Source: Myxococcales bacterium (GTDB taxonomy: Bacteria > Myxococcota > Myxococcia > Myxococcales > UBA5297). Taken from it: a DNA stretch of 64,000 bases. Positions 5,073 to 52,506 of the stretch are shown here, piece after piece. The DNA lies in NCBI GenBank assembly GCA_050288705.1, contig JBNKEI010000111.1, positions 5,872-69,871 of the forward strand, read 5' to 3'. The first letter of the stretch is position 1. Every line of letters starts with the position of its first letter. Made by a program: the position numbers and the translations under genes. The notes under the pieces are model-generated. The model searched no databases, was not told where the DNA came from, and worked only from the letters and a program-made list of their open reading frames with translations.

Positions 5073-6461
5073 ATGGATTGCGAACGCCTATATCAGCATT
5101 TACCGCTAGCGCTCCAGAATATTGCGGTTTCTGTGGAAGGGTGGCGGATTGCTCGTCTGCGGTATAATAGCTATTTTAAAAAGCAGCTTTCGCAAGCATT
5201 AGCGCGAGAAAAATATAATTCACAGCGAATGGAAGAGTATCGCCGTACTCGGCTACGGGAATTTATTCGCCATGCCGCAACCCAAGTACCCTATTATCGC
5301 CAGCTTTTTCGGGAATTAAAAATTTGTGCCAATGACATAGTTACACTCGACGATTTGAAAAAATTGCCTATTTTAACTAAAGCTAAAGTGCGCTCTAATC
5401 CTGCGCAATTCGTTCCCGACAATATCTCTTCATTAACGCCTATGCGCGCCCATACTAGTGGCACAACCGGGGCAGGACTGAAATTCTTTGTTACCCGGAA
5501 AGCCCACCGTGAGCAATGGGCAACTTGGTGGCGCTACCGTAAAGCCCACGGAATTGGGTTGAAAGAATGGTGTGCCTATTTTGGGGGAAGAGCAATAGTT
5601 CCAATCGGACAACCAGCGCCTCCCTATTGGCGAGTAAATTATCCAGGACGGCAGGTCTTATTCAGCGGCTATCATTTAGGACCAGCCACCGCATTGAGCT
5701 ATATTCAGCATTTGCAAAAATTATCTTTGCGGTGGATTCATGGGTATCCCTCTTTGCTTTCTCTACTGGCTTTTTACATTCTTCAATGGAATATTAAAAT
5801 TACTAAAATCAAATGGGTGACAATCGGGGCAGAAAGCTTGCTTCCACATCAAGCAGAAACCATTTTTCGAGCATTTGGAGTTACTCCAATTCAGCACTAT
5901 GGAATGGCCGAGGGAGTGTCCAATATTTCTGAATGCCCTGGAAACCAGCTCCATGTAGATGAAGATTTCTCCATTGTCGAGTTTGTTCTCTTTCAAAACA
6001 ATGTCTATAGTATTATTGGAACCAATTACTTAAACCCTGCCTTTCCTCTAATTCGTTACGACACTGGCGATACGGCTATATTAGGCGAAAATACTTGTTC
6101 CTGTGGTCGCCAGGGAAGAATAATAAGATCTATTGATGGCCGGGTAGAAGATTACCTAGTAGCTAAAGATGGTAGCTTATTGGGTCGTATGGACCACCTT
6201 TTTAAAAACCTAACGCACATTCAGGAAGCACAAATCGTTCAAAACAAACCAGGTCGGGCTATATTGCGAATTGTTAGAGCGCCCAAATATTCGCCGCAAG
6301 ATGAAAAAGAATTGCGGGCTTCGATAACGAAATATGTGGGAGATAAAATTGAGATAGCTATTCAATACGTAGAGCAAATTGAGAAAACCGCCATCGGAAA
6401 ATTGCGGTTGGTAGTTTCCACCACTAGTAAACGAGCTAGCTGCCAGAATGAAGCCCGATAA
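5073..6461 (+). CDS. Phenylacetate-CoA ligase-like adenylate-forming enzyme (CapK / F390-synthetase family)
   Basis: AMP-binding core motif HTSGTTG, YGMAEG, and a later RYDTGD motif. The size (462 aa) and glycan-locus context match CapK-like proteins. Confidence 0.7.
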   Translation: MDCERLYQHLPLALQNIAVSVEGWRIARLRYNSYFKKQLSQALAREKYNSQRMEEYRRTRLREFIRHAATQVPYYRQLFRELKICANDIVTLDDLKKLPILTKAKVRSNPAQFVPDNISSLTPMRAHTSGTTGAGLKFFVTRKAHREQWATWWRYRKAHGIGLKEWCAYFGGRAIVPIGQPAPPYWRVNYPGRQVLFSGYHLGPATALSYIQHLQKLSLRWIHGYPSLLSLLAFYILQWNIKITKIKWVTIGAESLLPHQAETIFRAFGVTPIQHYGMAEGVSNISECPGNQLHVDEDFSIVEFVLFQNNVYSIIGTNYLNPAFPLIRYDTGDTAILGENTCSCGRQGRIIRSIDGRVEDYLVAKDGSLLGRMDHLFKNLTHIQEAQIVQNKPGRAILRIVRAPKYSPQDEKELRASITKYVGDKIEIAIQYVEQIEKTAIGKLRLVVSTTSKRASCQNEAR

Positions 6462-7584
6462 GCAAGGTCTGAAAATAGCTCATATTCTTCCGGTAAATGC
6501 CAAGCTTGGCGCCGGCATATGGAATCCCACTATTTCTATAGCCCAAGAACAAGTAAAACTGGGACATCGGGTTTTTATTGTTACGTCGATAATAAATAAA
6601 TCAGTTACCGTGCCGGGAATAGAGTGCAGCTTCTGGTCAAACGTTGGAGAAATATTTTCACTTTTAGAACAAATACGTCCGGATATTGTTCATCTGCATA
6701 GTTTGTGGACGCTTCCTTGTTTAGTTGCTTGTCTATTTTGTTGGAGAGATAAAAGACCCTATTTTTTAAGTCCCCATGGAATGTTAATGCCCGCGGCAAT
6801 GGGGCGCAAACAATGGAAGAAAATTCCCTACTGGAATCTAATAGAAAAGCATTTGGTAGCTAATTGCCAAACGGTTTTTGTAGCAAGCGAAATAGAGGCC
6901 AAAGAGGTTAGCAAAATCTTTCCCAAGCTTGCTATCCAAGTTGCCCCCTTTGGTGCGCCAGAGCCAGAAGAAGGCAATGTGGGTTTGCCTCATGTTCTTG
7001 CGGGATTGGAAGGATACATACTGTATTTAGGAAGAATACATCCCATCAAAAACTTGGAAGCTCTAGTTGAGACATCTGGCGACTTGCCCGACCGGTGGGC
7101 CCTAGTTATGGCGGGAAATGCGGGTATCCCGGAGTATTTCCATAAGCTGGAAAAAATTGATAATTGGGCGAAAAAAGTTATTTATCTGGGTGATGTGCGC
7201 GGGACTTTGAAATGGTCGCTAATAAAAAAAGCGCAAGTTTTAGTTTTGCCGTCGCATTCGGAAAATTTTGGAAACGTAGTGCTGGAAGCTTTGTCGGTAG
7301 GTACTCCGGTAATTGCATCCAAGGGTACTCCCTGGAGTATTCTGGAGTTGAAGAATGCCGGGCTATGGATCGATTGCAATTCGGTAATATTAAGAGAGGC
7401 ATTATACTCGGTGTTTGCAGAACCGGAAATCTGGGAAACTCGCCGAAAAAACGCTCTAAATGTAGCACAAAAATTTTCGTGGAGATCGGTCGCCAAAACC
7501 TTGTGTGACTGCTATAGAGTATATTCCCTCTCCCCTTGGGAGAGGGTTAGGGTGAGGGGGGAAGTCAATGACAGTCACTATTGA
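6448..7584 (+). CDS. Glycosyltransferase family 4 (GT-B)
   Basis: E-x7-E region SHSENFGNVVLEALSVGTPVIAS. The last ~20 codons (YSLSPWERVRVRGEVNDSHY) are supplied by the repeat at 7526-7560. Confidence 0.8.
   Translation: MKPDKQGLKIAHILPVNAKLGAGIWNPTISIAQEQVKLGHRVFIVTSIINKSVTVPGIECSFWSNVGEIFSLLEQIRPDIVHLHSLWTLPCLVACLFCWRDKRPYFLSPHGMLMPAAMGRKQWKKIPYWNLIEKHLVANCQTVFVASEIEAKEVSKIFPKLAIQVAPFGAPEPEEGNVGLPHVLAGLEGYILYLGRIHPIKNLEALVETSGDLPDRWALVMAGNAGIPEYFHKLEKIDNWAKKVIYLGDVRGTLKWSLIKKAQVLVLPSHSENFGNVVLEALSVGTPVIASKGTPWSILELKNAGLWIDCNSVILREALYSVFAEPEIWETRRKNALNVAQKFSWRSVAKTLCDCYRVYSLSPWERVRVRGEVNDSHY
7526..7560. repeat. GC-rich palindromic interspersed repeat
   Basis: ccctctcccc-tt-gggagaggg ttagggtgaggggg. 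Confidence 0.85.
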
Positions 7585-8023
7585 GCGCTGTCGTCAGTTA
7601 CGTCTTAACGCTACGTACGCCGAAAAACGGCTTTGGTTCATACTGCGCAAGCAACAACTTGGGGGCTTCAAGTTTCGGAGGCAACACCCACTTGGTCCGT
7701 ATATCCTCGATTTTTTCTGCCCGCAAAAGAGACTCGCCATCGAAGTAGATGGGGATTCGCATTTTTTGTTAGACGGTCCTCGCAAAGATGCTTTGCGAAC
7801 AACATATCTTAGGCAGGCTGGAATTCAGGTGATCCGATTTACTAACGCAGATGTTTTGCGGCATCCTGAACTTATCAAGCAAGTTCTATGGAAAATACTT
7901 ATGGACCCTCACCCTAACCCTCTCCCAGAGGGAGAGGGTAATTCAAAGGTATCCACTGTCCAGAATACAAAAGGGGAGACATTCCAAGATATTCCCTCTC
8001 CCTTTGGGAGAGGGTTAGGGTGA
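7568..8023 (+). CDS. DUF559 (Vsr-like endonuclease fold) domain protein
   Basis: AEKRLWFILR...FKFRRQHPLGPYILDFFCPQKRLAIEVDGDSH...IRFTNADVL is the DUF559 signature. The C-terminal tail (PHPNPLPEGEG...PSPFGRGLG) is translated from repeat copies. Confidence 0.85.
   Translation: MTVTIERCRQLRLNATYAEKRLWFILRKQQLGGFKFRRQHPLGPYILDFFCPQKRLAIEVDGDSHFLLDGPRKDALRTTYLRQAGIQVIRFTNADVLRHPELIKQVLWKILMDPHPNPLPEGEGNSKVSTVQNTKGETFQDIPSPFGRGLG
7906..7938. repeat. GC-rich palindromic interspersed repeat (inverse orientation)
   Basis: ccctcaccctaa ccctctccc-aga-gggagaggg. Confidence 0.85.
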
Positions 8024-8026
8024 GGG
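7994..8026. repeat. GC-rich palindromic interspersed repeat
   Basis: ccctctccc-ttt-gggagaggg ttagggtgaggg. It contains the DUF559 stop and the GTG used by the next ORF. Confidence 0.85.
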
Positions 8027-8889
8027 CGCTACGCTACCAGGTAAAATGGACCATCGATTCTGGTGACGGTGTAAAAAACACCCTACATATTTCCCAACCC
8101 TCGCCAACATTAATTACAGGTAACGAATGGTATCAAATCTTTCGAAAACGCGCCTTGGCTTCAATGGGGAAAACTTGGTTTCCCGTGTACCGAATGGCCG
8201 ATGGTGAATTTTCATTTTGTGTAGGCTGGCGTCCGTCTTATGGCTATTCAATTCGCTCAATAGCTAGGAGAATAGCCTGGAAGTTTGGTTTATATAATGC
8301 AGCAGAACATGCTACTTGCTGGAATGAGAAATATACAACGAGCGAACGTGCGGCGCTCATGCCTAAATACATAGCCGACTTGAGAAGAATTTCCCAACAG
8401 GGATGCCTGGCTATGTTTTTAGGAAAATGCGAAAATACCAATTTTGACCAATACAAAAATGAGTTATGTTCTTGGCTAGATAATAATCAAGTCGAATTGA
8501 CCACCAACAATTACTTGCCATTCTTTTTTGTTCTGCATTTTTTAACTTCTCAGGGATGGCAAGAAATTTATTCTGGTCGGCGAATTTTAGTAGTTACCTC
8601 AATAGAAAAACAACGTCAGCAAGCAATTCGTCTTAGATTGGAAGGGTGGGGGGCTAAATCAGTTCAATTTTTAACCATTTCTCCCCATAGAGCTTTGTTC
8701 GAAATAATCAATGTTGCTGATATAGGCGAGGTAGATATTGCCCTAGTTGGGGCAGGCATTGGCTCGGCAAATATTTTGTGTCAACTTGAACCCTTGCAAA
8801 CCCTTTGTCTGGATGTAGGAGCGTACATTAATGCCTTGGAAAATCCGAAATTTCTACCACACGGTACGTTTGTGGTTCCGGAGGCATAA
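8020..8889 (+). CDS. Hypothetical protein, possibly GT-D/DUF1792-like glycosyltransferase (start uncertain)
   Basis: YRMADGEFSF resembles the R.GDGE motif of DUF1792/GT-D enzymes as I remember it. The only in-frame start upstream of that motif is the GTG inside the repeat. The alternative ATG at 8164 would cut into the putative domain. Confidence 0.4.
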   Translation: MRALRYQVKWTIDSGDGVKNTLHISQPSPTLITGNEWYQIFRKRALASMGKTWFPVYRMADGEFSFCVGWRPSYGYSIRSIARRIAWKFGLYNAAEHATCWNEKYTTSERAALMPKYIADLRRISQQGCLAMFLGKCENTNFDQYKNELCSWLDNNQVELTTNNYLPFFFVLHFLTSQGWQEIYSGRRILVVTSIEKQRQQAIRLRLEGWGAKSVQFLTISPHRALFEIINVADIGEVDIALVGAGIGSANILCQLEPLQTLCLDVGAYINALENPKFLPHGTFVVPEA

Positions 8890-8903
8890 GAAAACTAGCC
8901 CAG

Positions 8904-10082
8904 GTGCAGGTCATGAAGACTTTCTCGGTTGTTCACAACATACCAAGCCCCTACCGCCTTCATCTGTTTCGAATGCTAAATGTGGAGCTGAAGGAGAGGG
9001 GGCTGAATCTGCATGTACATTTTATGGCTTCTGGTTACCAAGAAAGGCCTCATTGGTGTTCCACTTCTTCCATCTGCTGCTCCCCAGATTCTGTGGCAAA
9101 ATATGGTTTTTCACATTCATTCTGGCACGATCGAGGATGGGAATTTGGTCCCCACCACTTGCACTATAATCCCGAACTTATCGCTCATTTAATAAGCAAT
9201 CCGGTAGATTATTTGCTAGTAGGTGGGCCTTGGGCAACCATAACCGCAATGGCAATTTCCTTAAAGCCCAGAGCAAGACGCTCCATTGCCTGGCTAGAAG
9301 CCAACACCAAAACTCCTGGACGCATAAATGGAATAGCAGGGGCGTTCAAAAGAAAAACACTTTCTAAATATGACTATATTGCAGTGCCTGGGCAAGAAGG
9401 CATTGCTCATGCGCAGCTAATTTTTGGCACAGGAAAACCTCCTCCTTTGGTTTTATTGCCCAACTTAGTTGACGAGAAAGAATTTCGGAAGAACAACTAT
9501 AGGCAAGAGTCACGGACGCAAATTTGTAAAAAGTATGATCTTCCAGAAAATCGAAAAATAGCTTTATGGAACGCCAGATTAATTGCCTCAAAAGGCATTT
9601 GCGAATTTCTTAGCAAAATTTCAGTAGGTATGCTGGCTGGCTGGAATATTATAATTTTGGGCGATGGTCCAGAAAAAAACAAGATACTTAAAACCATTCA
9701 TAAAAATCGGCTGCAAGATCATGTTTTTGTTTTTGGATATGTTAGCTACGACAAAATGCCCGAAATTTATAATGCTGCTGATTTTTTGATATTGGCATCT
9801 TTGCGCGATCCTAATCCGCTTTCGGTGATTGAAGCCATGCATTGCGGACTTCCGCTATTGGTATCTAACCGAATTGGAAATTTTTCCGAGGCGTTGGAGG
9901 AAGGAGAAAACGGGTGGTGTTTCGATCCTTTTGACCAGCGGTCAGTCGTGGTCGCTGTAAAAAAGGCGTTCAGTGCTTCTCGCCAAGAACTGGGAAAAAT
10001 GGGCGAGAAATCTCGGAAAATTGCCTCCCGCCACTGGTCCAGTAACGAAGCCATTAACCGTTTTCTCGATAGTGTTTTATAG
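8904..10082 (+). CDS. Glycosyltransferase family 4/1 (GT-B)
   Basis: C-terminal SLRDPNPLSVIEAMHCGLPLLVSNRIGNFSEALEEGENG (E-x7-E). The likely start is the ATG at 8913. Confidence 0.8.
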   Translation: MQVMKTFSVVHNIPSPYRLHLFRMLNVELKERGLNLHVHFMASGYQERPHWCSTSSICCSPDSVAKYGFSHSFWHDRGWEFGPHHLHYNPELIAHLISNPVDYLLVGGPWATITAMAISLKPRARRSIAWLEANTKTPGRINGIAGAFKRKTLSKYDYIAVPGQEGIAHAQLIFGTGKPPPLVLLPNLVDEKEFRKNNYRQESRTQICKKYDLPENRKIALWNARLIASKGICEFLSKISVGMLAGWNIIILGDGPEKNKILKTIHKNRLQDHVFVFGYVSYDKMPEIYNAADFLILASLRDPNPLSVIEAMHCGLPLLVSNRIGNFSEALEEGENGWCFDPFDQRSVVVAVKKAFSASRQELGKMGEKSRKIASRHWSSNEAINRFLDSVL

Positions 10083-42958: not shown

Positions 42959-43136
42959 CTTTGTGCAAAATATGTGCATGTTTGTTTTTTTCTCTGAGCG
43001 CGAGAACCGGATGTGCTTCTCATATCGAAGCTCGTTTAGCGGTCTTCTGATCCTGATCCTTTGAGAATCTGTTGCATTTTCATGCGCATTTTCGTAAAAA
43101 ACCAAACTCTGCTCAATTTGGAAGCGGAGTGGTGAG

Positions 43137-43580
43137 TTGAGAACGAGAGCGGAAGCGAACGAGAGAAGAGAAGTCATTCGGCAAATTCTCCGAGGAGAAA
43201 AAATCGGTGACCAAGATGAGCTTTTGCTGCGGCTGACTCAAAGAGGGATTAGAGTCACTCAGTCGAGTGTTTCTCGCGACCTTACTGCTATGGGAATTGT
43301 AAAGGTCGCCGGACACTACCGGGTGAGTGAAGAATTAGATCAAGAAGAAGCAGCGCTTCTTGGTCTTGCTGGAGCAGTTAGGAAATCGCAAGCCGCTGGC
43401 CCCTACTTGTTGGTGATACATACGCCCCCTGGGCAAGCATCAGCAGTAGCCCTCGCAATAGATAGTGCACGGTGGCCCGAGGTGCTAGGTACCGTGGCAG
43501 GGGATGACACAATTTTTATCGCCACCGACGGGCGGAGAGATCAACGCATGATCAAAGCCCGTCTATCTTGTTTCGCCTGA
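43137..43580 (+). CDS. argR: Arginine repressor
   Basis: RQILRGEKIGDQDELLLRLTQRGIRVTQSSVSRDL (wHTH) and GTVAGDDTIFI (oligomerisation / Arg-binding domain). Confidence 0.85.
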   Translation: MRTRAEANERREVIRQILRGEKIGDQDELLLRLTQRGIRVTQSSVSRDLTAMGIVKVAGHYRVSEELDQEEAALLGLAGAVRKSQAAGPYLLVIHTPPGQASAVALAIDSARWPEVLGTVAGDDTIFIATDGRRDQRMIKARLSCFA

Positions 43581-43602: not shown

Positions 43603-44820
43603 ATGTCTAGTAGCAATCCCATTGTTCTTGCCTTCAGTGGCGGTTTGGACACCAGTTTTCTCGTTCCCTGGCTGCGAGAGCAATATCAATGCCCGGTAGT
43701 CACCGTTACAGTAGACACCGGAGGGCTTGATGCCGATGGTTGTAAGCGTGTTGCCGATCGGTCGGCAGCGTTAGGGGCCATCGAGCATTGTCACATAGAT
43801 GCTCGACAAGCTTTTTTTGAGGAAACCCTGAAGTTTCTTGTTATGGGAAATGTATTGCGCGGTCATGTATATCCACTTTGCGTAGGATCAGAGCGAACTT
43901 TGCAAGCCCGCAAAGTAGCAGAGGTGGCGAGAAATCGAAATGCCCGAGCTGTAGTGCACGGCTCTACTGCCGCAGGTAATGACCAGGTGCGTTTCGAGGT
44001 AGCTCTGCGAACAATAGCACCGGAGCTAGAGATAATGGCTCCTGTTCGCGATCAAGGCTTTAGCCGAGAAACCGAGATTACCTTTCTGCGGGAGCGTGGT
44101 TATCAGTTTCCTTTTGAGAAAGCCGCCTACTCTATTAACCAGGGATTATGGGGGGTAACTATCGGTGGAAAAGAAACCACTGATACAATCGATCCCTTGC
44201 CGGAAGACGCCTGGTTGATGACCAAAGGCGCTTGGGAACGATTTCTTCCTTCGCGAGTAGTGATGTTGGCTTTTGAAAAGGGTATTCCAGTTGCTATTAA
44301 TGGTGAAAGAAAAGACCCTGTATCTCTAGTTGAGCAGCTAAATGAAATGGCGGCGGCTTACGGAATTGGGCGAGGAATACATTTAGGAGATACAATTTTC
44401 GGGCTGAAAGGAAGGGTTGCTTTTGAAGCGCCGGCGGCATTAGTGCTAATCGCTTCCCACAGAGAGTTGGAGAAGCTCACTTTAACCGCTCGACAACAGC
44501 GCATCAAAGATCAGGTGGCGGCTACATATGGTGATTTGGTTCACGAAGCCCAATTTTTAGAGCCGGCATGCCGCGATATTGAGGCTCTTTTTCTTTCCTC
44601 CCAGTCCCGAGTTTGCGGCGAAGTTAGGGTCCGTTTTCAAACCGGAGCCTACTTCATAGAAGGAATAAACTCTCCTTATTCTTTGCGCGCGGCTTCAGTT
44701 GGAGTTTATGGAGAAGCTGCAGGAGAATGGACTGCGGCTGATGCTCGCGGGTACTCGCGAATGGCTGCTCTTCCTTCTATGCTGCATGCACGGGCAGGAA
44801 CCGCTAAGGAAAAGAAGTGA
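43603..44820 (+). CDS. argG: Argininosuccinate synthase
   Basis: AFSGGLDTS ATP-binding motif. Size is 405 aa. Confidence 0.9.
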   Translation: MSSSNPIVLAFSGGLDTSFLVPWLREQYQCPVVTVTVDTGGLDADGCKRVADRSAALGAIEHCHIDARQAFFEETLKFLVMGNVLRGHVYPLCVGSERTLQARKVAEVARNRNARAVVHGSTAAGNDQVRFEVALRTIAPELEIMAPVRDQGFSRETEITFLRERGYQFPFEKAAYSINQGLWGVTIGGKETTDTIDPLPEDAWLMTKGAWERFLPSRVVMLAFEKGIPVAINGERKDPVSLVEQLNEMAAAYGIGRGIHLGDTIFGLKGRVAFEAPAALVLIASHRELEKLTLTARQQRIKDQVAATYGDLVHEAQFLEPACRDIEALFLSSQSRVCGEVRVRFQTGAYFIEGINSPYSLRAASVGVYGEAAGEWTAADARGYSRMAALPSMLHARAGTAKEKK

Positions 44821-45881
44821 AATCAGTTCTTCTGGATAAGATAGCTTCCGTGGCGCTGAATTGCCGTTTGTCCCGTGAAGTTCGAGTAAACGAAGAATTC
44901 TCTGCGGTAGAGGGTAGCGTACTTGCAGTGCGGGTGCTAACTTCCAAAAGCACTTACAACCAGCTGGAACTTCCGTCCGGGCGGCTCTCTAGATTAAAAG
45001 CTGGCGACGTAATAGCCGTTGCGTTGGGACATCGCAAAGCTCTGTTGGGTTATTCGGGTTATGTTCCCGATACCGTTCAATTGGGGGACAAGCTCCATTT
45101 GCTGAACTTGGGGGGAGTGCTAGGCGTATGTGATGGAATAAATCCGGATTTAGGGGACCCCTTTGTTTGCGAAGTTTTGGGTCAGATTCTTCATTTCCCC
45201 TATCTTGCCAAGCGCATAGGAATTCCTGCGCATATTTCCCAGGGATCGCTTCCGTTCTCCAATGCTCTAGAGCTGTTTGGCGTACCGGTTATTGCTTTAG
45301 TAGGAACTTCCATGAGCTCAGGCAAAACCTCTGCGGCATGTGCCCTGATTCAGGATCTAACACATCGGGGATTGAACGTGGTGGCCTGCAAAACCACCGG
45401 GGTTTCCTTGCGCAGTGATATTTTGGCCATGGAAGACGCTGGCGCCAAGCGATGTCAATTATTTACTGATTTTGGGGTAGTTACCACCACTTCCCAGGTT
45501 GCTTCGTCTTGTGCTCGAAGCATGCTTACTCAGTTAGCGGCAGATCGTCCGGATGTAATTGTGGTGGAGCTTGGCGATGGTTTACTCGGTCTTTATGGCG
45601 TAGACGCGATTTTGAATGACCAGGCATTGCGCTCGACTTTTTCAACGGTTGTGCTAGCGGCAAACGATCCGGTAGGAGCTTGGGGAGGGGTTCAACTTCT
45701 TCGAGAGCGCCATGGATTGTCGCCCCAGGTAATTACTGGTCCTGCCACCGACAACATTGCGGGTTGCTTGTTGATTGAAAAGCAAACCGGAATGCCTTGC
45801 CGTAACGCGCGTACAGATGCGGCGGGTCTCGCTGAAACTGTTTTAGCTAAGCTTCGCTTTGCTGCGCGTTCCTCTTCATAA
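44817..45881 (+). CDS. Uncharacterised P-loop (dethiobiotin-synthase/SIMIBI-like, possibly DUF1611-related) protein embedded in the arg operon
   Basis: The GTG overlaps the argG TGA (GTGA). Walker-A-like VGTSMSSGKTSAACALIQDLTHRGLNVVACKTTG, and a later VVELGDG (Walker-B-like). The N-terminal ~130 aa look beta-rich and unassigned. Confidence 0.45.
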   Translation: MKSVLLDKIASVALNCRLSREVRVNEEFSAVEGSVLAVRVLTSKSTYNQLELPSGRLSRLKAGDVIAVALGHRKALLGYSGYVPDTVQLGDKLHLLNLGGVLGVCDGINPDLGDPFVCEVLGQILHFPYLAKRIGIPAHISQGSLPFSNALELFGVPVIALVGTSMSSGKTSAACALIQDLTHRGLNVVACKTTGVSLRSDILAMEDAGAKRCQLFTDFGVVTTTSQVASSCARSMLTQLAADRPDVIVVELGDGLLGLYGVDAILNDQALRSTFSTVVLAANDPVGAWGGVQLLRERHGLSPQVITGPATDNIAGCLLIEKQTGMPCRNARTDAAGLAETVLAKLRFAARSSS

Positions 45882-45977: not shown

Positions 45978-47084
45978 ATGAGCGCAGAAACAGAAGTGAA
46001 AGAAAACCGAATTGCAGTCGCGGTGTTGGGAGGAACAGGTTATGTTTCTGGCGAGCTACTGCGAATTCTGTCACTTCATCCTGGCTTTTTTGTGGAATCA
46101 GTAGCTTCTACTAGTCAATCAGGCGAGCGTATCGTTTGCGCTTTTCCTCATCTAGCAGGAACTGCGCTGGAGAATTTGTGTTTCGAATCGCTGGATAGGT
46201 TGCTGGAGCGCATGCAAAAAGGCAAGTCACTAGGGGTTTTTGCGGCTACTCCTCATGCGGCTACTGCTGAGTTGGTGGACAAGCTGCTTAATCGAGCACA
46301 ACAGGTGGGAGCAAATCTTCATATTGTCGATTTGTCAGCGGATTTTCGTTTTTCTTCCCCGGGGCAGTATAAGGCTATTTATGGCCGAGAGCATCCTGCT
46401 CCCCAATGGCTTGGCCAGTTTACTTGTTTTCCTCCTGATCTTTTGCTGACCATATTTTCACCGCATGCTACCCAGCCCGGCTGCTTTACAACTGCGGTTA
46501 CTCTGGGGGCCTATCCCTTCTTTTCTTTGGGGTTAGTAGAGCCCCAAGTGTTTGCCTCGGCAATTACCGGTAGCTCTGGTTCTGGGCGAAAACTAGGACC
46601 GGGAACGCATCACCCAGAAAGACGCAGTACGTTAGCTGCCTACTCAGCCTTGGGTCACCGCCACGAACCAGAAATGCGCATGTTTTTGGCGCAAGCATCA
46701 CAGGCATCAAAAGAGGACAAGCTAGACGAACCGCAAGTCGATTTTGTTCCTCATTCTGGCCCTTTTGTTCGCGGTATTCATGCTACCTTGCGCATGACTC
46801 TTCGAAAAAACATGGATGTTGCAGAACTGCGTTCCTTGGTAAGTAGTTTTTATTCGCGTACTCCTTTTGTTCGGGTATCCGAAGAAATGCCCCGACTTAC
46901 CGAAGTAGTGGGGACCAATCGCTGTGGCTTAGGAATTGCGGTTAGGAACAAATCACTGGTGGTAACTAGCGTAATCGATAATTTGGTAAAGGGCGCTGCC
47001 GGAGGCGGCGTCCAGTGGATGAATCGGCTTTTTCTTCTACCCGAGGAAACAGGATTGCTGCTTCCAGGACTGGGGTGGTTCTAA
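45978..47084 (+). CDS. argC: N-acetyl-gamma-glutamyl-phosphate reductase
   Basis: VAVLGGTGYVSGELLR, active-site region QPGCFTTA. Confidence 0.85.
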   Translation: MSAETEVKENRIAVAVLGGTGYVSGELLRILSLHPGFFVESVASTSQSGERIVCAFPHLAGTALENLCFESLDRLLERMQKGKSLGVFAATPHAATAELVDKLLNRAQQVGANLHIVDLSADFRFSSPGQYKAIYGREHPAPQWLGQFTCFPPDLLLTIFSPHATQPGCFTTAVTLGAYPFFSLGLVEPQVFASAITGSSGSGRKLGPGTHHPERRSTLAAYSALGHRHEPEMRMFLAQASQASKEDKLDEPQVDFVPHSGPFVRGIHATLRMTLRKNMDVAELRSLVSSFYSRTPFVRVSEEMPRLTEVVGTNRCGLGIAVRNKSLVVTSVIDNLVKGAAGGGVQWMNRLFLLPEETGLLLPGLGWF

Positions 47085-48256
47085 TGTCTGCGTCTCTTAA
47101 TTCGACAAACCCTATACAAGATTCCACAAAAAAGAGCGCGCTTCTCGACGTCTTTTCCCGATTTGGAATCGACTCGGTTCGTGGTGACGGCATGTGGATT
47201 CTAGACTCTAAAGGTCATCGTTATCTTGATTTTTATGGCGGACATGCGGTCGCTTTACTGGGTAATGTTCATCCGCGATTGGTTTCGACTTTAGAAAACC
47301 AAGCCAAGACACTATTCTTTCAATCAAATCTCTTCGATTTAGAAATTCGAGAACAAGCTGCCCAAAGACTAATTCGCTTCGGCCCTCGGGGATTAGATAG
47401 AGTCTTCTTTGTCAATAGCGGTGCTGAGGCCAATGAAAATGCCTTGCGAATTGCATTTTTGGCTACTAAGCGAGAACGAGTGGTTGCGGTAGAGGGGGGG
47501 TTTCACGGTCGCACTGCAGGATCGGCGGCTATTACTGCAAAACATGAAAATTGGTATGCATTCCCGCATAAACCGTACGCAGTCACTTTTGTACCTTTTA
47601 ACGATACCGATGGGTTAGTAGATGCTATGGGTGACGATGTAGCGGCAGTTATTGTGGAGCCGGTACAGGGAGTTGCCGGCGCGCGAGTACTTTCTGCTGA
47701 GTTTATGCATACTGCGCGGAATGTTACTCAAAAGCACGGTTCGCTACTAATTTTGGACGAAGTTCAGTCGGGAATGGGAAGAACTGGATACCCTTTTGCC
47801 GCTCAAGCCATGGGGGTAACTCCCGATGTGCTTACCGTGGCCAAAGGTATTGCGGGTGGATTTCCTGCCGGCGCAGTTTTGGTTTCCGAGGAATATGCTT
47901 GCAAAGTAAAAAAGGGCGAGCTGGGTACTACTTTTGGTGGTGGGCCATTAGCTTGCGCTCTTATCGAAACGGTTATTGATGTAATAGAATCGGAAAATTT
48001 GCTCCCTAGAGTAAGACGGTTGTCCGCCAGATTGCAAAAAGAATGCTGTGTAGGACCGGTCCAATCCGTACAGGGAATGGGTTATTTGCTAGGTTTTAAT
48101 TTACTTAGGCCGGCAGCAGAAGTTCTTAGTGAACTGCGCCAAGCAGGGGTTTTGGCAGGAGGAAGCGGCAACCCCCGTATAGCTCGATTGATTCCTCCTT
48201 TGATTGTCGAAGATTCTCATGTAGATATTTTGGTCTCCGCTCTGCGTTCCTTGTGA
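47084..48256 (+). CDS. argD: Acetylornithine (acyl-ornithine) aminotransferase
   Basis: Class-III aminotransferase motifs (FVNSGAEANE, DEVQSGMGRTG, TVAKGIAGGFP). The ATG overlaps the argC TAA (TAATG). Confidence 0.85.
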   Translation: MSASLNSTNPIQDSTKKSALLDVFSRFGIDSVRGDGMWILDSKGHRYLDFYGGHAVALLGNVHPRLVSTLENQAKTLFFQSNLFDLEIREQAAQRLIRFGPRGLDRVFFVNSGAEANENALRIAFLATKRERVVAVEGGFHGRTAGSAAITAKHENWYAFPHKPYAVTFVPFNDTDGLVDAMGDDVAAVIVEPVQGVAGARVLSAEFMHTARNVTQKHGSLLILDEVQSGMGRTGYPFAAQAMGVTPDVLTVAKGIAGGFPAGAVLVSEEYACKVKKGELGTTFGGGPLACALIETVIDVIESENLLPRVRRLSARLQKECCVGPVQSVQGMGYLLGFNLLRPAAEVLSELRQAGVLAGGSGNPRIARLIPPLIVEDSHVDILVSALRSL

Positions 48257-48291
48257 ACTGGTATTCGATTGCACAGAAAAGAGTTGATGAA

Positions 48292-49302
48292 ATGAAAAGG
48301 TTCATAAGACTTTCCGATATTACCGATGAGCAGTTGGAGTCGATTCTTCGATTAGCTGGCGATGTGCAGCGACAGCCAGTTCGCGAAGACCTTCGAGGTA
48401 AAACCATTGGTTTGGTTTTTATGAATCCCTCTTTACGTACGTTGGCCTCAATGGAAACCGGGGTAACGCAATTAGGGGGACATACCTTTCTTATCCAGCC
48501 TAACGCTGGGTCTTGGAAATTGGAAACCCGTACCGGCGCAGTAATGGATGGTGATTCGGTGGAGCATGTGCGGGAAGCTATTCCAGTACTAGCCCAATAT
48601 GCCGATGCTTTGGCAGTGCGTTGCTTTGCAGAAGGCAAAAACCTCGAAGAAGACTTGGCTGATCAAACCATTCAGATAATGAGCAGCCTGTGTCCCAAGC
48701 CTTTTATCAGCTTGGAATCGGCGGTGGCGCATCCTTGTCAAGCGCTAGCCGATTATAAGACGCTCGAAGATTTGGAAATTCCCCGGCGTGGTGGAAAATT
48801 CGTTCTTTCCTGGGCTTGGCATCCCAAACCTTTGGCTTACGCTGTACCTGCTTCGGCACTAAACATGGCAGTACGGCGAGGGATGGAGGTCACCATTCTT
48901 CGACCGGAAGGATACAGTCTGCCTCAGCCGATAATGGCCGATGCCTTGAGCTTGGCAGCAAGAACAGGAGCAACTATTCGAGAGACTTCCCGACGCAAAG
49001 AAGCTTTGGAAGACGCTCAAGTACTGTATGTCAAATCTTGGGCTCGTCCGGATTTGTATGGTCAAACCGAGCGGGAACTTTCTGCGCGAGCAGGTCTTAG
49101 AGAACAGTGGTGTGTTGGCGAAAGCTGGTTTGAGAATGCACGTCCAGACGCCATCCTCATGCACTGTTTGCCGGTGCGTCGAAATGTAAAAATAGCTGAC
49201 GAAGTACTTGATGGGCCGCGCAGTGTAGTCGTTCGTCAAGCCGGAAATCGGTTGCATGTTCAAAAAGCTTTGCTGCTTACTATGTTATGTGAAGATCTCT
49301 AG
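48292..49302 (+). CDS. argF: N-acyl-ornithine carbamoyltransferase (argF'-type: acetyl- or succinyl-ornithine transcarbamylase)
   Basis: NPSLRT instead of the OTCase S-T-R-T-R motif, HPCQALAD, and HCLPVRRNVKI (the AOTCase/SOTCase-type tail after HCLP). Alternative start is the GTG at 48253, which overlaps the argD stop. Confidence 0.7.
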   Translation: MKRFIRLSDITDEQLESILRLAGDVQRQPVREDLRGKTIGLVFMNPSLRTLASMETGVTQLGGHTFLIQPNAGSWKLETRTGAVMDGDSVEHVREAIPVLAQYADALAVRCFAEGKNLEEDLADQTIQIMSSLCPKPFISLESAVAHPCQALADYKTLEDLEIPRRGGKFVLSWAWHPKPLAYAVPASALNMAVRRGMEVTILRPEGYSLPQPIMADALSLAARTGATIRETSRRKEALEDAQVLYVKSWARPDLYGQTERELSARAGLREQWCVGESWFENARPDAILMHCLPVRRNVKIADEVLDGPRSVVVRQAGNRLHVQKALLLTMLCEDL

Positions 49303-49358: not shown

Positions 49359-50294
49359 ATGTCTTTTCTCGATCGCACTGCCGCTATGGATGCCCTTATC
49401 AATGCTGTACCTCACTTGCGTCTGTATCGTGAGCGAACTTTTGTGCTGAAAGTGGGAGGAGCGATTTGTGCGGATAGTAAATCTTTGCGAGACGTGGCAG
49501 TACAAATCGGAGTTCTGCGGGAATTTGGAATACGCATTGTATTAGTGCATGGAGGTGGACCGCAGACTACGAGGCTGGCTGATAAATTAGGTATTCCTAC
49601 AAATTTTGTTGAAGGCAGGCGGATTACCTGCGAACGCACTCTTGATGTCGCAGTGATGACCATGGGGGGGGCGGTAAATACCTCAATTTTATCGGCATTT
49701 CTTGCGGAAAACGTTCCGGCAGTGGGGTTAACCGGGTTAGACGCAGGGCTAATCCGGGCAGTGCGCAGGCCGGTACAGACCAAAGAAGTAAATGGTGAAT
49801 CGGTAACCATTGATTACGGTTTGGTAGGTGATGTCGTCGGAGTGAATTCCAAAATATTGGAAACGTTGCTGGCGGCGCAGTTTATACCAGTAATTTCCTC
49901 TCTTTCCGCCGATGAAACCGGGCAAGTATTAAACATCAATGCGGACACCATTGCCGCAACTTTGGCTAAACATCTTCGTGCCGCAAAATTGATTTTTTTG
50001 ACCGATACTCCGGGGTTGCTGGAAAATAAAAATGACCCCAGCTCGTTAATTTCCTACACCGACGTGCAAGGTATTTCAGAGTTTCGCAGTCGTGGAGTAA
50101 TCGATTCGGGGATGCTTCCCAAGGTTAATTCCTCGGTGGATGCTCTAGAAAATGGTGTCGAACGGGTGCATATGGTGGGGTATCGTCCGCGGGGCAATCT
50201 ACTTACGGAAATTTTTACTAACGAAGGGGCTGGAACTCTCATCGTTAAAAATGCACGGGAATCGGCGGTGGCAGAAGTAGAAAAAGTTAAATAG
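49359..50294 (+). CDS. argB: Acetylglutamate kinase
   Basis: VLKVGGA...VHGGGPQ...INADT motifs. Confidence 0.9.
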   Translation: MSFLDRTAAMDALINAVPHLRLYRERTFVLKVGGAICADSKSLRDVAVQIGVLREFGIRIVLVHGGGPQTTRLADKLGIPTNFVEGRRITCERTLDVAVMTMGGAVNTSILSAFLAENVPAVGLTGLDAGLIRAVRRPVQTKEVNGESVTIDYGLVGDVVGVNSKILETLLAAQFIPVISSLSADETGQVLNINADTIAATLAKHLRAAKLIFLTDTPGLLENKNDPSSLISYTDVQGISEFRSRGVIDSGMLPKVNSSVDALENGVERVHMVGYRPRGNLLTEIFTNEGAGTLIVKNARESAVAEVEKVK

Positions 50295-50295
50295 C

Positions 50296-50379
50296 AGTTG
50301 CCCCTCACCCTAACCCTCTCCCAGAGGGAGAGGGGAACTCAGACCATTTCTTGGGAGAGAGTTAGGGTGAGGGGCAACT
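50296..50379. repeat. Complete palindromic copy of the GC-rich repeat family (84 bp)
   Basis: The outer arm agttgcccctcaccctaac pairs perfectly with gttagggtgaggggcaact (19 bp). Inner units are ccctctccc-aga-gggagagggg and ttgggagagag. It starts 2 nt after the argB stop. Confidence 0.85.
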
Positions 50380-50414
50380 AGATTGTCCTGTTTGCTTGGG
50401 GAAATAGGTGGATT

Positions 50415-51602
50415 ATGGCGCGACTATGGGATCAAGGAGAACCTCTGGACGAACTAATACTTCGTTACACTGCCGGCGAAGATCATGTTTTGGATGATAG
50501 GTTGGTGGAATATGACCTTCGAGCCTCATCAGCCCACGCTCAGATGCTTCAAAGTGCTGGCTATTTGCATGCAGAGGACGAGGCGCTACTGCAAAAAGCG
50601 ATCAAGGAACTAGCGCGAAGTTACAAGCAGGAGGAGTGGAAAATTACTCTTCAGGACGAAGACTGTCACACGGCAATAGAAAACCGACTGGTGGCCATGG
50701 TGGGGGAGCCAGGGAGAGCAATTCATTTAGGGCGATCCCGCAACGATCAGGTGCTAGCCGCAATGCGGTTGTATCTGATGGATGCACTGGAAGAGTTGGC
50801 AAAATGTGCGGAAGCGGTAGCAAGTTCTTTGGATAAATTGGCTGACCGTGAAGGCGATTTTCCTATGCCAGGGTATACACACTTGCAAAGAGCCATGCCT
50901 ACTACACTAAAAGACTGGGCAAAGGCTTATGCTAGTGAGTTTTTTGATGATGCTCAAGGATTGCGTTCGGCGAAACGGCGGGCGAACAAAAACCCTTTGG
51001 GTTCAGCGGCCGGTTATGGTGTTCCTCTTTTAAAAATTGATCGTGGTCTTACTGCTCAGCTTCTGGGGTTTTCTCAAGTGCATGAGCCAGTTACCGCAGT
51101 ACAACTATCTCGCGGTAAAGCGGAAGCGGGTGCTTTGTTGGAAGCCGCTTTGTTATCTCAAGACTTGGGGCGTTTGGCCGCAGATCTTTGCCTGTATGCT
51201 ACTGCTGAATTTGCTTTTGTACGCCTGCCTAATGAATTTACTACCGGTTCTTCCATTATGCCGCAAAAGAGAAACCCCGATGTTTTTGAGCTGGCTCGCG
51301 GACGAACTGGAGAAGCACTGGCTGCTCTAAACGAAGTGATGGCCATTACATCCAAGATGCCCTCCGGATACCATCGCGATTTGCAGCTCATTAAAAAGCC
51401 CCTTTTTCGAGGGCTAGATTCGGTGCGTGATACTGCTGCGGTACTTAACCACTCCATTTCTCGCCTATCTTTCGATAAAGAACGAATGCTGGCGGCGATT
51501 GATCCTTCAATGATGGCTACGGAGCGAGCTTATCGTATGGTCCAGGAAGATGGTATTTCTTTTCGTGAAGCCTATCGTCGAGTAAAAGAAAGTATTAAGT
51601 AA
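50415..51602 (+). CDS. argH: Argininosuccinate lyase (short form, 395 aa)
   Basis: Fumarate-lyase signature GSSIMPQKRNPDVFE. The protein ends shortly after ISFREAYRRV, so it appears to lack the C-terminal ~60-70 aa present in E. coli-type ArgH. Confidence 0.8.
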   Translation: MARLWDQGEPLDELILRYTAGEDHVLDDRLVEYDLRASSAHAQMLQSAGYLHAEDEALLQKAIKELARSYKQEEWKITLQDEDCHTAIENRLVAMVGEPGRAIHLGRSRNDQVLAAMRLYLMDALEELAKCAEAVASSLDKLADREGDFPMPGYTHLQRAMPTTLKDWAKAYASEFFDDAQGLRSAKRRANKNPLGSAAGYGVPLLKIDRGLTAQLLGFSQVHEPVTAVQLSRGKAEAGALLEAALLSQDLGRLAADLCLYATAEFAFVRLPNEFTTGSSIMPQKRNPDVFELARGRTGEALAALNEVMAITSKMPSGYHRDLQLIKKPLFRGLDSVRDTAAVLNHSISRLSFDKERMLAAIDPSMMATERAYRMVQEDGISFREAYRRVKESIK

Positions 51603-51627: not shown

Positions 51628-52506
51628 GTGATTAATAAACAGGAGGCTCTAGCGTATGAGTTTCCCGAGGAAGAGACCCAGTACGATGAACGAGACGTAG
51701 CTATTTATGCGTTAGGTATTGGTGCGGCGCAAGATCCATTAGACGAGCATGAGTTGAGCTACGTATGGGAAAAACATCCGCATTTTACTCCCTTTCCTTT
51801 GTATTCCACAGTGCCTGCTTTAGGCATTTTGATGCGCAGGACTGCTTCACGAAACCCCATTCCTGGGCTTCCATTTGACCTTGATCGCATTCTTCATGTT
51901 GCCCACAGTGCTCGCCTGTACCGCCCTTTGCCGAAAAGAGCCATTCTGAAACATCGAGTGCGTATCGAGTCCATAGATGATGAACGAAGAAACGCAACGG
52001 TGGTTTTTTGTGTGGAAAGTCGCGACCAAGAAGATGCTCGGTTGTTTTCCAATGAGATTTCCATTGTTATTCGGGGGGCGGGGAAGGGTAGAACGCGTGC
52101 AGTAAGCATAGCCTCGGTGCAACATCGAGAATCTCCCGATGCAGTGGTAGTAGAAAAAATTCCCAAGAACCAAGCATTGCTGTACCGCCTTTCTGGAGAC
52201 AGCAATCCTTTGCATGTCGATCCGGAAGCAGCGCGGATTTTTGGTCTTTCCAGACCTGTTTTGCATGGTATATGTACGCTAGGGTACGCTTCAAGAATGG
52301 TGCTTAAACAAGCTGCCCAGGACAGACAGTTGCGCAGTGTTCGTGTGCAATTTTCACACGTTTTTTTTCCTGGTGAAACCTTAGAGACGCGCATCTGGAA
52401 AGAATCAGATCAGCGTCTCCACTTTTGCTCTCTAGTCTTAGAACGTCAAAAAAAAGTGCTTTCCTGTGGAGAAATTGAGCTAGAAGAAATCAATGCCAAT
52501 CAATGA
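51628..52506 (+). CDS. MaoC-like double hot-dog (R)-hydratase
   Basis: YRLSGDSNPLHVDPEAAR...LHGICTLG hydratase motif in the C-half, with a degenerate hot-dog N-half. Confidence 0.7.
   Translation: MINKQEALAYEFPEEETQYDERDVAIYALGIGAAQDPLDEHELSYVWEKHPHFTPFPLYSTVPALGILMRRTASRNPIPGLPFDLDRILHVAHSARLYRPLPKRAILKHRVRIESIDDERRNATVVFCVESRDQEDARLFSNEISIVIRGAGKGRTRAVSIASVQHRESPDAVVVEKIPKNQALLYRLSGDSNPLHVDPEAARIFGLSRPVLHGICTLGYASRMVLKQAAQDRQLRSVRVQFSHVFFPGETLETRIWKESDQRLHFCSLVLERQKKVLSCGEIELEEINANQ

Follow-up and report, generated by a model that had tools for sequence, protein, structure and literature searches.

The arginine operon on a 64,000-nucleotide stretch of DNA from a Myxococcales bacterium (contig JBNKEI010000111.1; the whole 64 kb stretch is referred to here as the window) raises the question of which protein acylates glutamate at the start of the pathway. 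Annotated with Pfam and NCBIfam models and their cut-offs, the operon reads argR-argG-X-argC-argD-argF'-argB-argH, in which argF' encodes an N-acylornithine carbamoyltransferase and X an uncharacterised P-loop protein of 354 amino acids (aa). A tblastn search of the 64 kb window for an ArgE/DapE-type gene was negative, and no GNAT, ArgA or ArgJ was found among the approximately 40 open reading frames (ORFs) scanned with the family libraries, a few short ORFs lying outside the scan. We propose that X is responsible for N-acylglutamate formation, the first step of arginine biosynthesis. The probability of this role is put at roughly 0.7, because genomic context, pathway logic, a gene fusion and a published co-occurrence analysis all point to it. 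An earlier note on this DNA had described X as a gene whose GTG start overlaps the argG stop, the carbamoyltransferase as being of the N-acylornithine type and the window as lacking both an N-acylglutamate synthase (NAGS) and a deacylase, and these descriptions hold. Its interpretation, that X replaces either the first or the deacylating step, is partly supported: the first step is the only one without a cluster gene, whereas a deacylase gene of the M20 family accompanies X in 42 related loci and argues against deacylation. The interpretation was largely correct and had been anticipated by the GapMind 2026 preprint.

The gene and the sequence elements on which the argument depends are as follows.

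44817–45881, + strand: X, P-loop protein of 354 aa, predicted N-acyl-L-glutamate synthase (ORF, family conservation and synteny).
45303–45329, + strand: Walker A motif GTSMSSGKT, residues 163–171 (sequence and family alignments).
45390–45392, + strand: codon of Lys192, which sits on Lys37 of Escherichia coli dethiobiotin synthetase (DTBS) in hidden Markov model (HMM) alignments to 1dts, 1a82 and 3fgn.
45555–45581, + strand: Walker-B-like strand VIVVELGDG, residues 247–255, holding Glu251 (model strand 247–253).

The reading frame of X is intact. Its GTG start sits in AAG AAG TGA AAT, overlaps the TGA stop of argG by 4 nt (GTGA) and is preceded at about 10 nt by an AAGGA Shine–Dalgarno-like run; the GTG is further supported as the start because homologues align from residue 1 (MKxVLLDK). 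The Walker-A stretch, VGTSMSSGKTSAACALIQDLTHRGLNVVACKTTG, spans residues 162–195. Clustered at 90% identity, the family comprises at least 6,498 clusters, counted at E ≤ 1e-3 from 8,000 scored candidates. The 120 best of these are 64–94% identical to X over its full length, and every one of them that carries a source name is labelled 'hypothetical protein'; those nearest to X bear the names delta proteobacterium and Myxococcota. An exhaustive HMMER search gathered 1,423 representatives at 50% identity, reaching approximately 30% identity to X. When one genome per GTDB species was scanned, relatives of X were present in at least 591 species from six or more phyla, the carriers belonging to Myxococcota, Acidobacteriota (Thermoanaerobaculia and Holophagales), Planctomycetota, Eisenbacteria, Fimbriimonadia and Gammaproteobacteria (Woeseiaceae and Steroidobacteraceae). 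Homologues are 60–75% identical across phyla. More than 100 positions are invariant among 30 sequences of the close family, taken from the phyla found in the species scan, and an alignment of 44 family members extending down to 28% identity retains Pro84, Gly169, Lys170, Lys192 and Glu251 without exception, with Thr171, Asp201, Asp218, Asp246, Asp284 and Arg73 conserved in at least 90%. Judged from these alignments, the conservation is that of purifying selection typical of an enzyme.

The linkage of X to arginine genes was followed by mapping the arg proteins of the window onto the best 80 X-homologue loci (GTDB). X lies directly upstream of argC in all 80 loci, which span several phyla; wherever the contig reaches, argR and argG precede X, and argD, argF', argB and argH follow. 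Of 71 loci, 51 retain the 4 nt overlap between X and argG; with the size of the family, this takes X well past anything due to chance. A 47%-identical relative is found in argR-X-argC-argD-argF'-argB, and the homologues from eight or more Steroidobacteraceae genomes, 55–58% identical to X over its full length, also lie in an arg cluster. Six gammaproteobacterial loci (L061, L064, L069, L071, L077 and L079), some of them from Steroidobacteraceae, hold X-argC-argB only, with argR upstream of X in L077; argG, argD, argF' and argH were not detected in the fetched flanks of these mini-clusters, which would be pathway steps 1 to 3. A gene of approximately 1.1 kb for an M20 deacylase of the ArgE/DapE family lies between argB and argH in the 42 loci mentioned above (for example at L003 15315–16373, L010 15317–16372 and L011 14133–15206). 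It is absent from the argB-argH spacer of the window (50295–50414), from the related locus L001 and from the Woeseiaceae and Steroidobacteraceae loci, and a search for a conserved flanking hydrolase in loci without the M20 gene gave only arg genes. Across the X family, therefore, the N-acylcitrulline route has a cluster gene for each step except the N-acylation of glutamate, which makes the first step a much likelier role for X than deacylation.

A fusion protein points in the same direction. In P0201 (673 aa; L081 5860–7881), an X-like domain and an amino-acid-kinase domain of the ArgB/ArgA type form one uninterrupted ORF. The fusion was seen on four contigs (L081, L082 and L083 among them), which come from three or more samples, and adjoins a divergently transcribed arginase gene (L081 4817–5767). 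On the ArgB model the kinase domain reaches 127 bits, short of the cut-off of 151, and its glycine-rich motif reads K-I-A-D, where N-acetylglutamate kinases carry K-x-G-G; by analogy with ArgA, this domain may be regulatory. Classical ArgA combines a kinase-like domain with a GNAT acetyltransferase, and the fusion parallels that architecture; it speaks for X acting alongside ArgB in the pathway. An apparent fusion of X to ArgC (P0135) was rejected, since ArgR with ArgG and ArgF' with ArgB are also called as fused on the same ENA contig (L084 4309–11676); such fusions probably arise from faulty assembly or gene calling, or from read-through of stop codons.

Three further loci illustrate the wider family. 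One from an Acidobacteriota metagenome-assembled genome (MAG) is rearranged (L059 6205–13354: argR, an argG-like gene at 30% identity, argD, argB, X, argC and an argH-like gene at 36% identity), and no ArgF' was found within 10 kb of it. An archaeal contig (L089 6132–9136) carries two convergent X-like paralogues, at 7001–8092 (+) and 8081–9136 (−), both approximately 32% identical to X; the start of the first shares 4 nt with the end of a gene for a RimK-family alpha-L-glutamate ligase (LysX/MptN-like, 6132–7004), so the wider family is not confined to arginine operons. P0245 (L087 7001–8086), 30% identical to X, comes from a contig that otherwise looks eukaryotic (PP2C, CCDC39/Uds1, MRP-S33 and RNase III) and may be a eukaryotic member of the family.

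The role proposed here for X has been predicted before. The GapMind 2026 preprint predicted the hypothetical protein ACG33_RS14135 of Steroidobacter denitrificans (UniProt A0A127FCT3) to be the missing ArgA, without experiments, and is the only paper on such an enzyme that our literature search found. It reports that S. denitrificans is able to grow on minimal medium and has no ArgA, that homologues of ACG33_RS14135 are 'virtually always' in arg operons and never co-occur with ArgA homologues, that 90% of the neighbouring ArgF' proteins have Ala, Pro, Ser or Val at position 92, and that ACG33_RS14135 shows weak Foldseek similarity to DgcN (PDB entry 7XRJ; E = 1.4e-7, r.m.s.d. 5.6 Å). DgcN is a D-glutamate N-acetyltransferase of the DUF1611 family (Yu et al., 2023, as cited in the GapMind 2026 preprint). 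Since the Steroidobacteraceae homologues that are 55–58% identical to X lie in the same cluster, X very likely belongs to the same family as ACG33_RS14135.

The acyl group can be approached through the specificity residues of ArgF', whose codons in the window are listed below.

48559–48561, + strand: ArgF' Val103, equivalent to Glu92 of Xanthomonas campestris N-acetylornithine transcarbamylase (AOTCase), from alignment to 3kzc (wild type, Glu) and 3l06, 3l02 and 3l05 (mutants).
48835–48837, + strand: ArgF' Ala195, the second specificity position (Asn185 in X. campestris numbering).
49189–49191, + strand: ArgF' Lys313, the third specificity position (Lys302 in X. campestris numbering).

The protein carries HCLPVRRN, with SLRTL in place of STRTR. 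Among solved structures it is closest to Xanthomonas AOTCase and to Bacteroides N-succinylornithine transcarbamylase (SOTCase), the top PDB match being an E92 mutant of X. campestris AOTCase. The two enzymes differ at Glu92, Asn185 and Lys302 (X. campestris numbering), where SOTCases have Ala/Ser/Pro/Val/Gln, Pro and Val/Ile/Glu, respectively (Shi et al., PMC4581275), and according to work cited in the GapMind 2026 preprint the replacement of Glu92 by Ala, Pro, Ser or Val alone switches AOTCase to N-succinylornithine. All 64 readable ArgF' proteins from the related loci have one of these small residues at the Glu92 position (Ala in 53, Val in six and Ser in five), and their three-residue signatures are APV (37), APA (nine), APK (six), VPK (five), SPV (five), VAK (one) and ATK (one). 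Going by these signatures, the related ArgF' family as a whole looks succinyl-specific; the window protein is probably so too, with less certainty than the family.

The predicted structure divides X into the following parts.

44817–45191, + strand: N-terminal all-beta domain, residues 1–125 [AlphaFold2 models, predicted local distance difference test (pLDDT) mostly 80–95].
45198–45245, + strand: inter-domain linker, residues 128–143 (pLDDT < 50 in both models).
45282–45854, + strand: C-terminal SIMIBI-class P-loop domain, residues 156–346 (Foldseek and profile search against the PDB).

The AlphaFold2 model, calculated from the 30-sequence alignment, has two domains and a mean pLDDT of 83.5. 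The N-terminal domain, which was also modelled alone (pLDDT 80.6), has about ten strands and the conserved motifs LGHRKAL(F/L)GYSG and LLNLGG. We infer that it is a substrate-binding module; Foldseek gave it no credible match in the PDB (best E = 1.4, TM ≤ 0.3), and Pfam gave no match in residues 1–155. Residues 156–346 are Rossmann-like, with pLDDT ≥ 90 over most of their length, and were the only part matched when the whole model was compared with the PDB [template modelling score normalized to the query (TMq) of about 0.4]. In the model X is a SIMIBI-class P-loop nucleoside triphosphatase (NTPase) fold with a Walker A motif and an acidic Walker B strand on a parallel sheet. Foldseek returned 216 PDB matches at E ≤ 1e-3, all of them SIMIBI proteins among the matches listed, headed by the DTBS 3of5 (E = 3.6e-7), HypB (2hf8; 8.5e-7) and SRP54 and FtsY (about 1e-6). 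The DUF1611 structure 2obn ranked 20th (E = 5e-6, TMq 0.39), after DTBS, HypB and SRP GTPases, and DgcN (7XRJ) was absent from the top 50. A single-sequence search of the PDB with X gave nothing at E up to 10. Profile searches (A1 and A4) reached DTBS (entries including 1dts, 1dae, 3fgn and 6cve), FtsY and MobB at the P-loop, with E values of 6e-4 to 0.1 for DTBS over 32–50 residues, and never retrieved DUF1611 or DgcN. The profile alignment lays residues 161–192 of X on residues 7–38 of DTBS, which places Lys192 on Lys37.

The earlier note had seen a likeness to the SIMIBI folds of DUF1611, DTBS or the Pta N-terminal domain; the SIMIBI P-loop stands, with DTBS as the top match, and membership of DUF1611 is not supported by the comparisons made here. 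The Pfam DUF1611_C model matches 38 residues (157–194; model positions 13–50 of 201) at 21.8 bits against a cut-off of 25, and X has an all-beta N-terminal domain instead of the DUF1611 N-terminal domain, which is Rossmann-like according to its Pfam description. The other sub-threshold Pfam matches are MobB (21.5 bits) and CbiA (17.1 bits), and NCBIfam MobB models also match X far under their cut-offs. Nor does the family model place X among the dethiobiotin synthetases, since X has no AAA_26 match (a relative, P0157, reaches 19.3 bits where the cut-off is 27); and no GNAT or ArgJ (Ntn) match, as a classical NAGS would give, came from Pfam, NCBIfam or structure searches. The DTBS catalytic set, comprising the Walker A Lys and Thr, Lys37 and the Walker-B Glu, is aligned in X with Lys170, Thr171, Lys192 and Glu251, which are invariant or nearly so. 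On the aligned sequences, this shared set is a common catalytic scaffold and not a sign of family membership, and the likeness to DgcN cited in the GapMind 2026 preprint is no more specific than that to the ATP-dependent DTBS.

A mechanism can be proposed on this basis. X would N-acylate L-glutamate, most likely to N-succinyl-L-glutamate, and ArgB, ArgC, ArgD and ArgF' would then take the product to N-succinylcitrulline. By analogy with DgcN, the C-terminal P-loop domain would bind the nucleotide-diphosphate part of succinyl-CoA, the all-beta N-terminal domain and the inter-domain cleft would hold glutamate, and a conserved acid, Glu251 or Asp218, may deprotonate the alpha-amino group for attack on the thioester. 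The genomic role is anchored by the arg linkage, by the sole step without a candidate gene and by the ArgB-type fusion; the acyl donor and the catalytic residues are inferred. The narrower assignment of X as a succinyl-CoA:L-glutamate N-succinyltransferase is accordingly tentative, its chances being somewhat short of even. It is favoured because, to our knowledge, every characterised N-acylglutamate synthase uses acyl-CoA or transacylation, and because DgcN is a P-loop glutamate N-acetyltransferase.

Several observations weigh against the proposed role or its acyl-CoA chemistry. The function of X is a prediction, here and in the GapMind 2026 preprint. The link to DgcN is weak, given the sub-threshold 38-residue DUF1611_C match, the PDB profiles that never find DUF1611 or DgcN, the Foldseek ranking of DTBS, HypB and SRP GTPases above the DUF1611 structure and the missing DUF1611-type N-terminal domain. 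The conserved Lys170, Thr171, Lys192, Asp218 and Glu251 make up an active Mg-NTPase set that is not obviously needed for binding CoA. The lack of argA and argJ in this organism covers 64 kb only, and a copy may lie elsewhere. Finally, the window ArgF' has a mixed Val/Ala/Lys signature and not the canonical Ala/Pro/Val of SOTCases, so that the acyl group is less certain here and may be unsettled in the window lineage.

The chemistry could instead be that of a ligase. X would then play the same pathway role as an ATP-dependent (or GTP-dependent) succinate:L-glutamate ligase, the P-loop phosphorylating the succinate carboxylate and the glutamate amino group attacking the acyl phosphate, in the way that dethiobiotin synthetase and the CobB/CobQ amidases form C–N bonds via an acyl phosphate. 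The P-loop domain finds its best structural and profile matches in DTBS; the invariant Lys192 falls on DTBS Lys37, and Glu251 lies in the strand, and at the position, of the DTBS motif hhhhEGAGG. Invariant Gly169, Lys170, Lys192 and Glu251, together with Thr171 and Asp218 at 90% or more, make up a complete set for Mg-NTP binding and hydrolysis, the lack of a DUF1611 N-terminal domain also counts in favour, and the archaeal relatives, translationally coupled to the RimK-family ATP-dependent glutamate ligase, stand in an amide-ligation context. Ligation would, however, set X apart from the characterised N-acylglutamate synthases, with their acyl-CoA or transacylation chemistry, and from DgcN, the one characterised P-loop enzyme that N-acylates glutamate, which the GapMind 2026 preprint cites as an acetyltransferase. 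DTBS Thr11 is moreover Met166 in X, so that the active sites differ, and the similarity to DTBS is at the generic level of the SIMIBI fold (TM about 0.4 over the whole query). Ligase chemistry is a live alternative, with clearly lower odds than the succinyl-CoA version. A bolder version of it is slightly less probable again: arginine biosynthesis would start free of acyl-CoA, with X as a DTBS-like ligase working via succinyl-phosphate, its beta-domain being a fold new to the PDB and the archaeal and possibly eukaryotic relatives performing other glutamate amide ligations.

It is improbable that X serves as an accessory or regulatory NTPase like the SIMIBI proteins HypB, UreG or MobB, helping to insert metal into an arginine enzyme or to assemble it, or regulating by sensing nucleotides. 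HypB, MobB and SRP-type GTPases are among its Foldseek and HMM matches and its NTPase residues are fully conserved, but X occurs in clusters whether or not they hold the M20 metalloenzyme, the alignment, when read by eye, shows no evident G4 motif (NKxD) for guanine specificity, and the very high conservation extends over a second, substrate-like N-terminal domain. The fusion partner is an amino-acid-kinase domain and not a metalloenzyme, and such a function would leave the first step without a candidate in hundreds of species, one of them reported to be prototrophic.

Very improbable is the view of X as an N-acylcitrulline deacylase, or as an ArgJ-like transacylase moving the acyl group from N-acylcitrulline to glutamate and filling both gaps together, for although no cluster ArgE/DapE-type gene is found in the window, in L001 or in the Woeseiaceae and Steroidobacteraceae loci, and S. 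denitrificans too is without a recognisable ArgE (GapMind 2026 preprint), X proteins 60–70% identical to that of the window, and so expected to share its function, coexist with the M20 deacylase in 42 loci, step 1 would go unfilled in all the genomes if X were purely a deacylase, the mini-clusters and the kinase fusion tie X to the early steps, and structure searches gave no amidohydrolase or Ntn (ArgJ-type) fold. N-acylglutamate formation by X remains the preferred reading.

The other genes of the window operon, all on the same strand, are as follows.

43137–43580, + strand: argR, arginine repressor, 147 aa (Pfam Arg_repressor, E = 6e-16, and Arg_repressor_C, E = 2.7e-19).
43603–44820, + strand: argG, argininosuccinate synthase, 405 aa (TIGR00032, 297.6 bits, cut-off 268.2).
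45978–47084, + strand: argC (TIGR01850, 267 bits, cut-off 233.6).
47084–48256, + strand: argD, N-acylornithine aminotransferase (Pfam Aminotran_3, E = 3.3e-96; the start is the gene call on the source contig).
48253–49302, + strand: argF', N-acylornithine carbamoyltransferase, 349 aa (NF003384, the NCBIfam N-acetylornithine carbamoyltransferase model, 354 bits, cut-off 288).
49359–50294, + strand: argB, N-acylglutamate kinase, 311 aa (TIGR00761, 231 bits, cut-off 151.3).
50415–51602, + strand: argH, argininosuccinate lyase, short form, 395 aa (TIGR00838, 322.9 bits, cut-off 279.5).

ArgR scores 112 bits on the NCBIfam model TIGR01529, under its cut-off. The argC TAA and the argD ATG have one nucleotide in common (TAATG), although an argD ORF of maximal length would begin at 47015, and the argF' GTG overlaps the argD TGA (GTGA); together with the argG/X overlap, these junctions indicate a block built for translational coupling. 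ArgB has no fused acetyltransferase domain, and only the kinase part of the ArgA models matches it. ArgH covers positions 23–387 of the 455 in TIGR00838, so that the C-terminal ASL_C2 region is for the most part missing. In 53 of 54 related loci the ArgH frame ends no more than 22 codons beyond the C-terminus of the window protein, and the short form is therefore a trait of this type of cluster and not a truncation. A search of the window for an E. coli-type ARG box (TGMATWWWWATKCA, allowing one mismatch) was negative; short repeats occur upstream of argR (TGTGCA-AAATA-TGTGCA at 42962–42978 and TTGCATTTTCATGCGCATTTTCG at 43071–43093). A gene for a MaoC-like (R)-hydratase (51628–52506), in the same orientation as argH, begins 26 nt after it. 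This gene is probably outside the arginine system, since none of the 80 related loci has a counterpart.

If X is the N-succinylglutamate synthase, it supplies the 'missing first step' by which at least 591 species from six or more phyla would begin to make arginine, mostly uncultured Acidobacteriota, Myxococcota, Planctomycetota, Woeseiaceae and Steroidobacteraceae. Automated reconstructions score such genomes as being without NAGS, as was reported for Holophagaceae MAGs (PMC11561045), and thereby skew predictions of auxotrophy and cross-feeding from MAGs; X is present in a Holophagales genome (L018). X would also represent either a second class of amino-acid N-acyltransferases, built on a P-loop and not on the GNAT fold, or an ATP-dependent ligase of a new kind, and arginine biosynthesis in its succinyl variant would extend far beyond Bacteroidetes. 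The role of the X-family enzyme is already published as a prediction, and the value left lies in proof, in the donor chemistry and in the missing desuccinylase. New here are the X-kinase fusion, the X-argC-argB mini-clusters, the counts of clusters with the M20 gene and the three-residue ArgF' test, as well as the all-beta N-terminal domain without a PDB match and the alternative, DTBS-like chemistry.

X can finally be set beside four known systems. ACG33_RS14135, like X, is a hypothetical protein in an arg operon beside argC, argG and argF'; the accompanying ArgF' proteins carry a small residue at position 92, some of the clusters include an argE-like gene, and the window gene belongs to a different lineage. 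DgcN resembles X in being a P-loop protein of the SIMIBI type that N-acylates glutamate, and DUF1611_C is nominally the top Pfam match of X; X nevertheless lacks DUF1611_N, is predicted to use L-glutamate and not D-glutamate, probably transfers a succinyl group and would be anabolic where DgcN is catabolic. Dethiobiotin synthetase (BioD), an ATP-dependent C–N bond-forming SIMIBI enzyme, gives the best Foldseek and HMM matches, with Walker A, Lys37/Lys192 and the acidic Walker-B strand in register. The match is limited to the P-loop domain of approximately 200 residues at 14–16% identity, X having an additional N-terminal domain, Met166 in place of Thr11 and no biotin genes nearby. The classical NAGS enzymes (ArgA, ArgJ, short GNAT NAGS, ArgH(A) and the Corynebacterium glutamicum Cg3035 type) catalyse the same step as is proposed for X; with neither a GNAT nor an Ntn fold and with no sequence similarity to them, X would be a non-homologous replacement. 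In Bacteroidetes a GNAT acyltransferase sits next to argG, and X occupies the same position in its operon.

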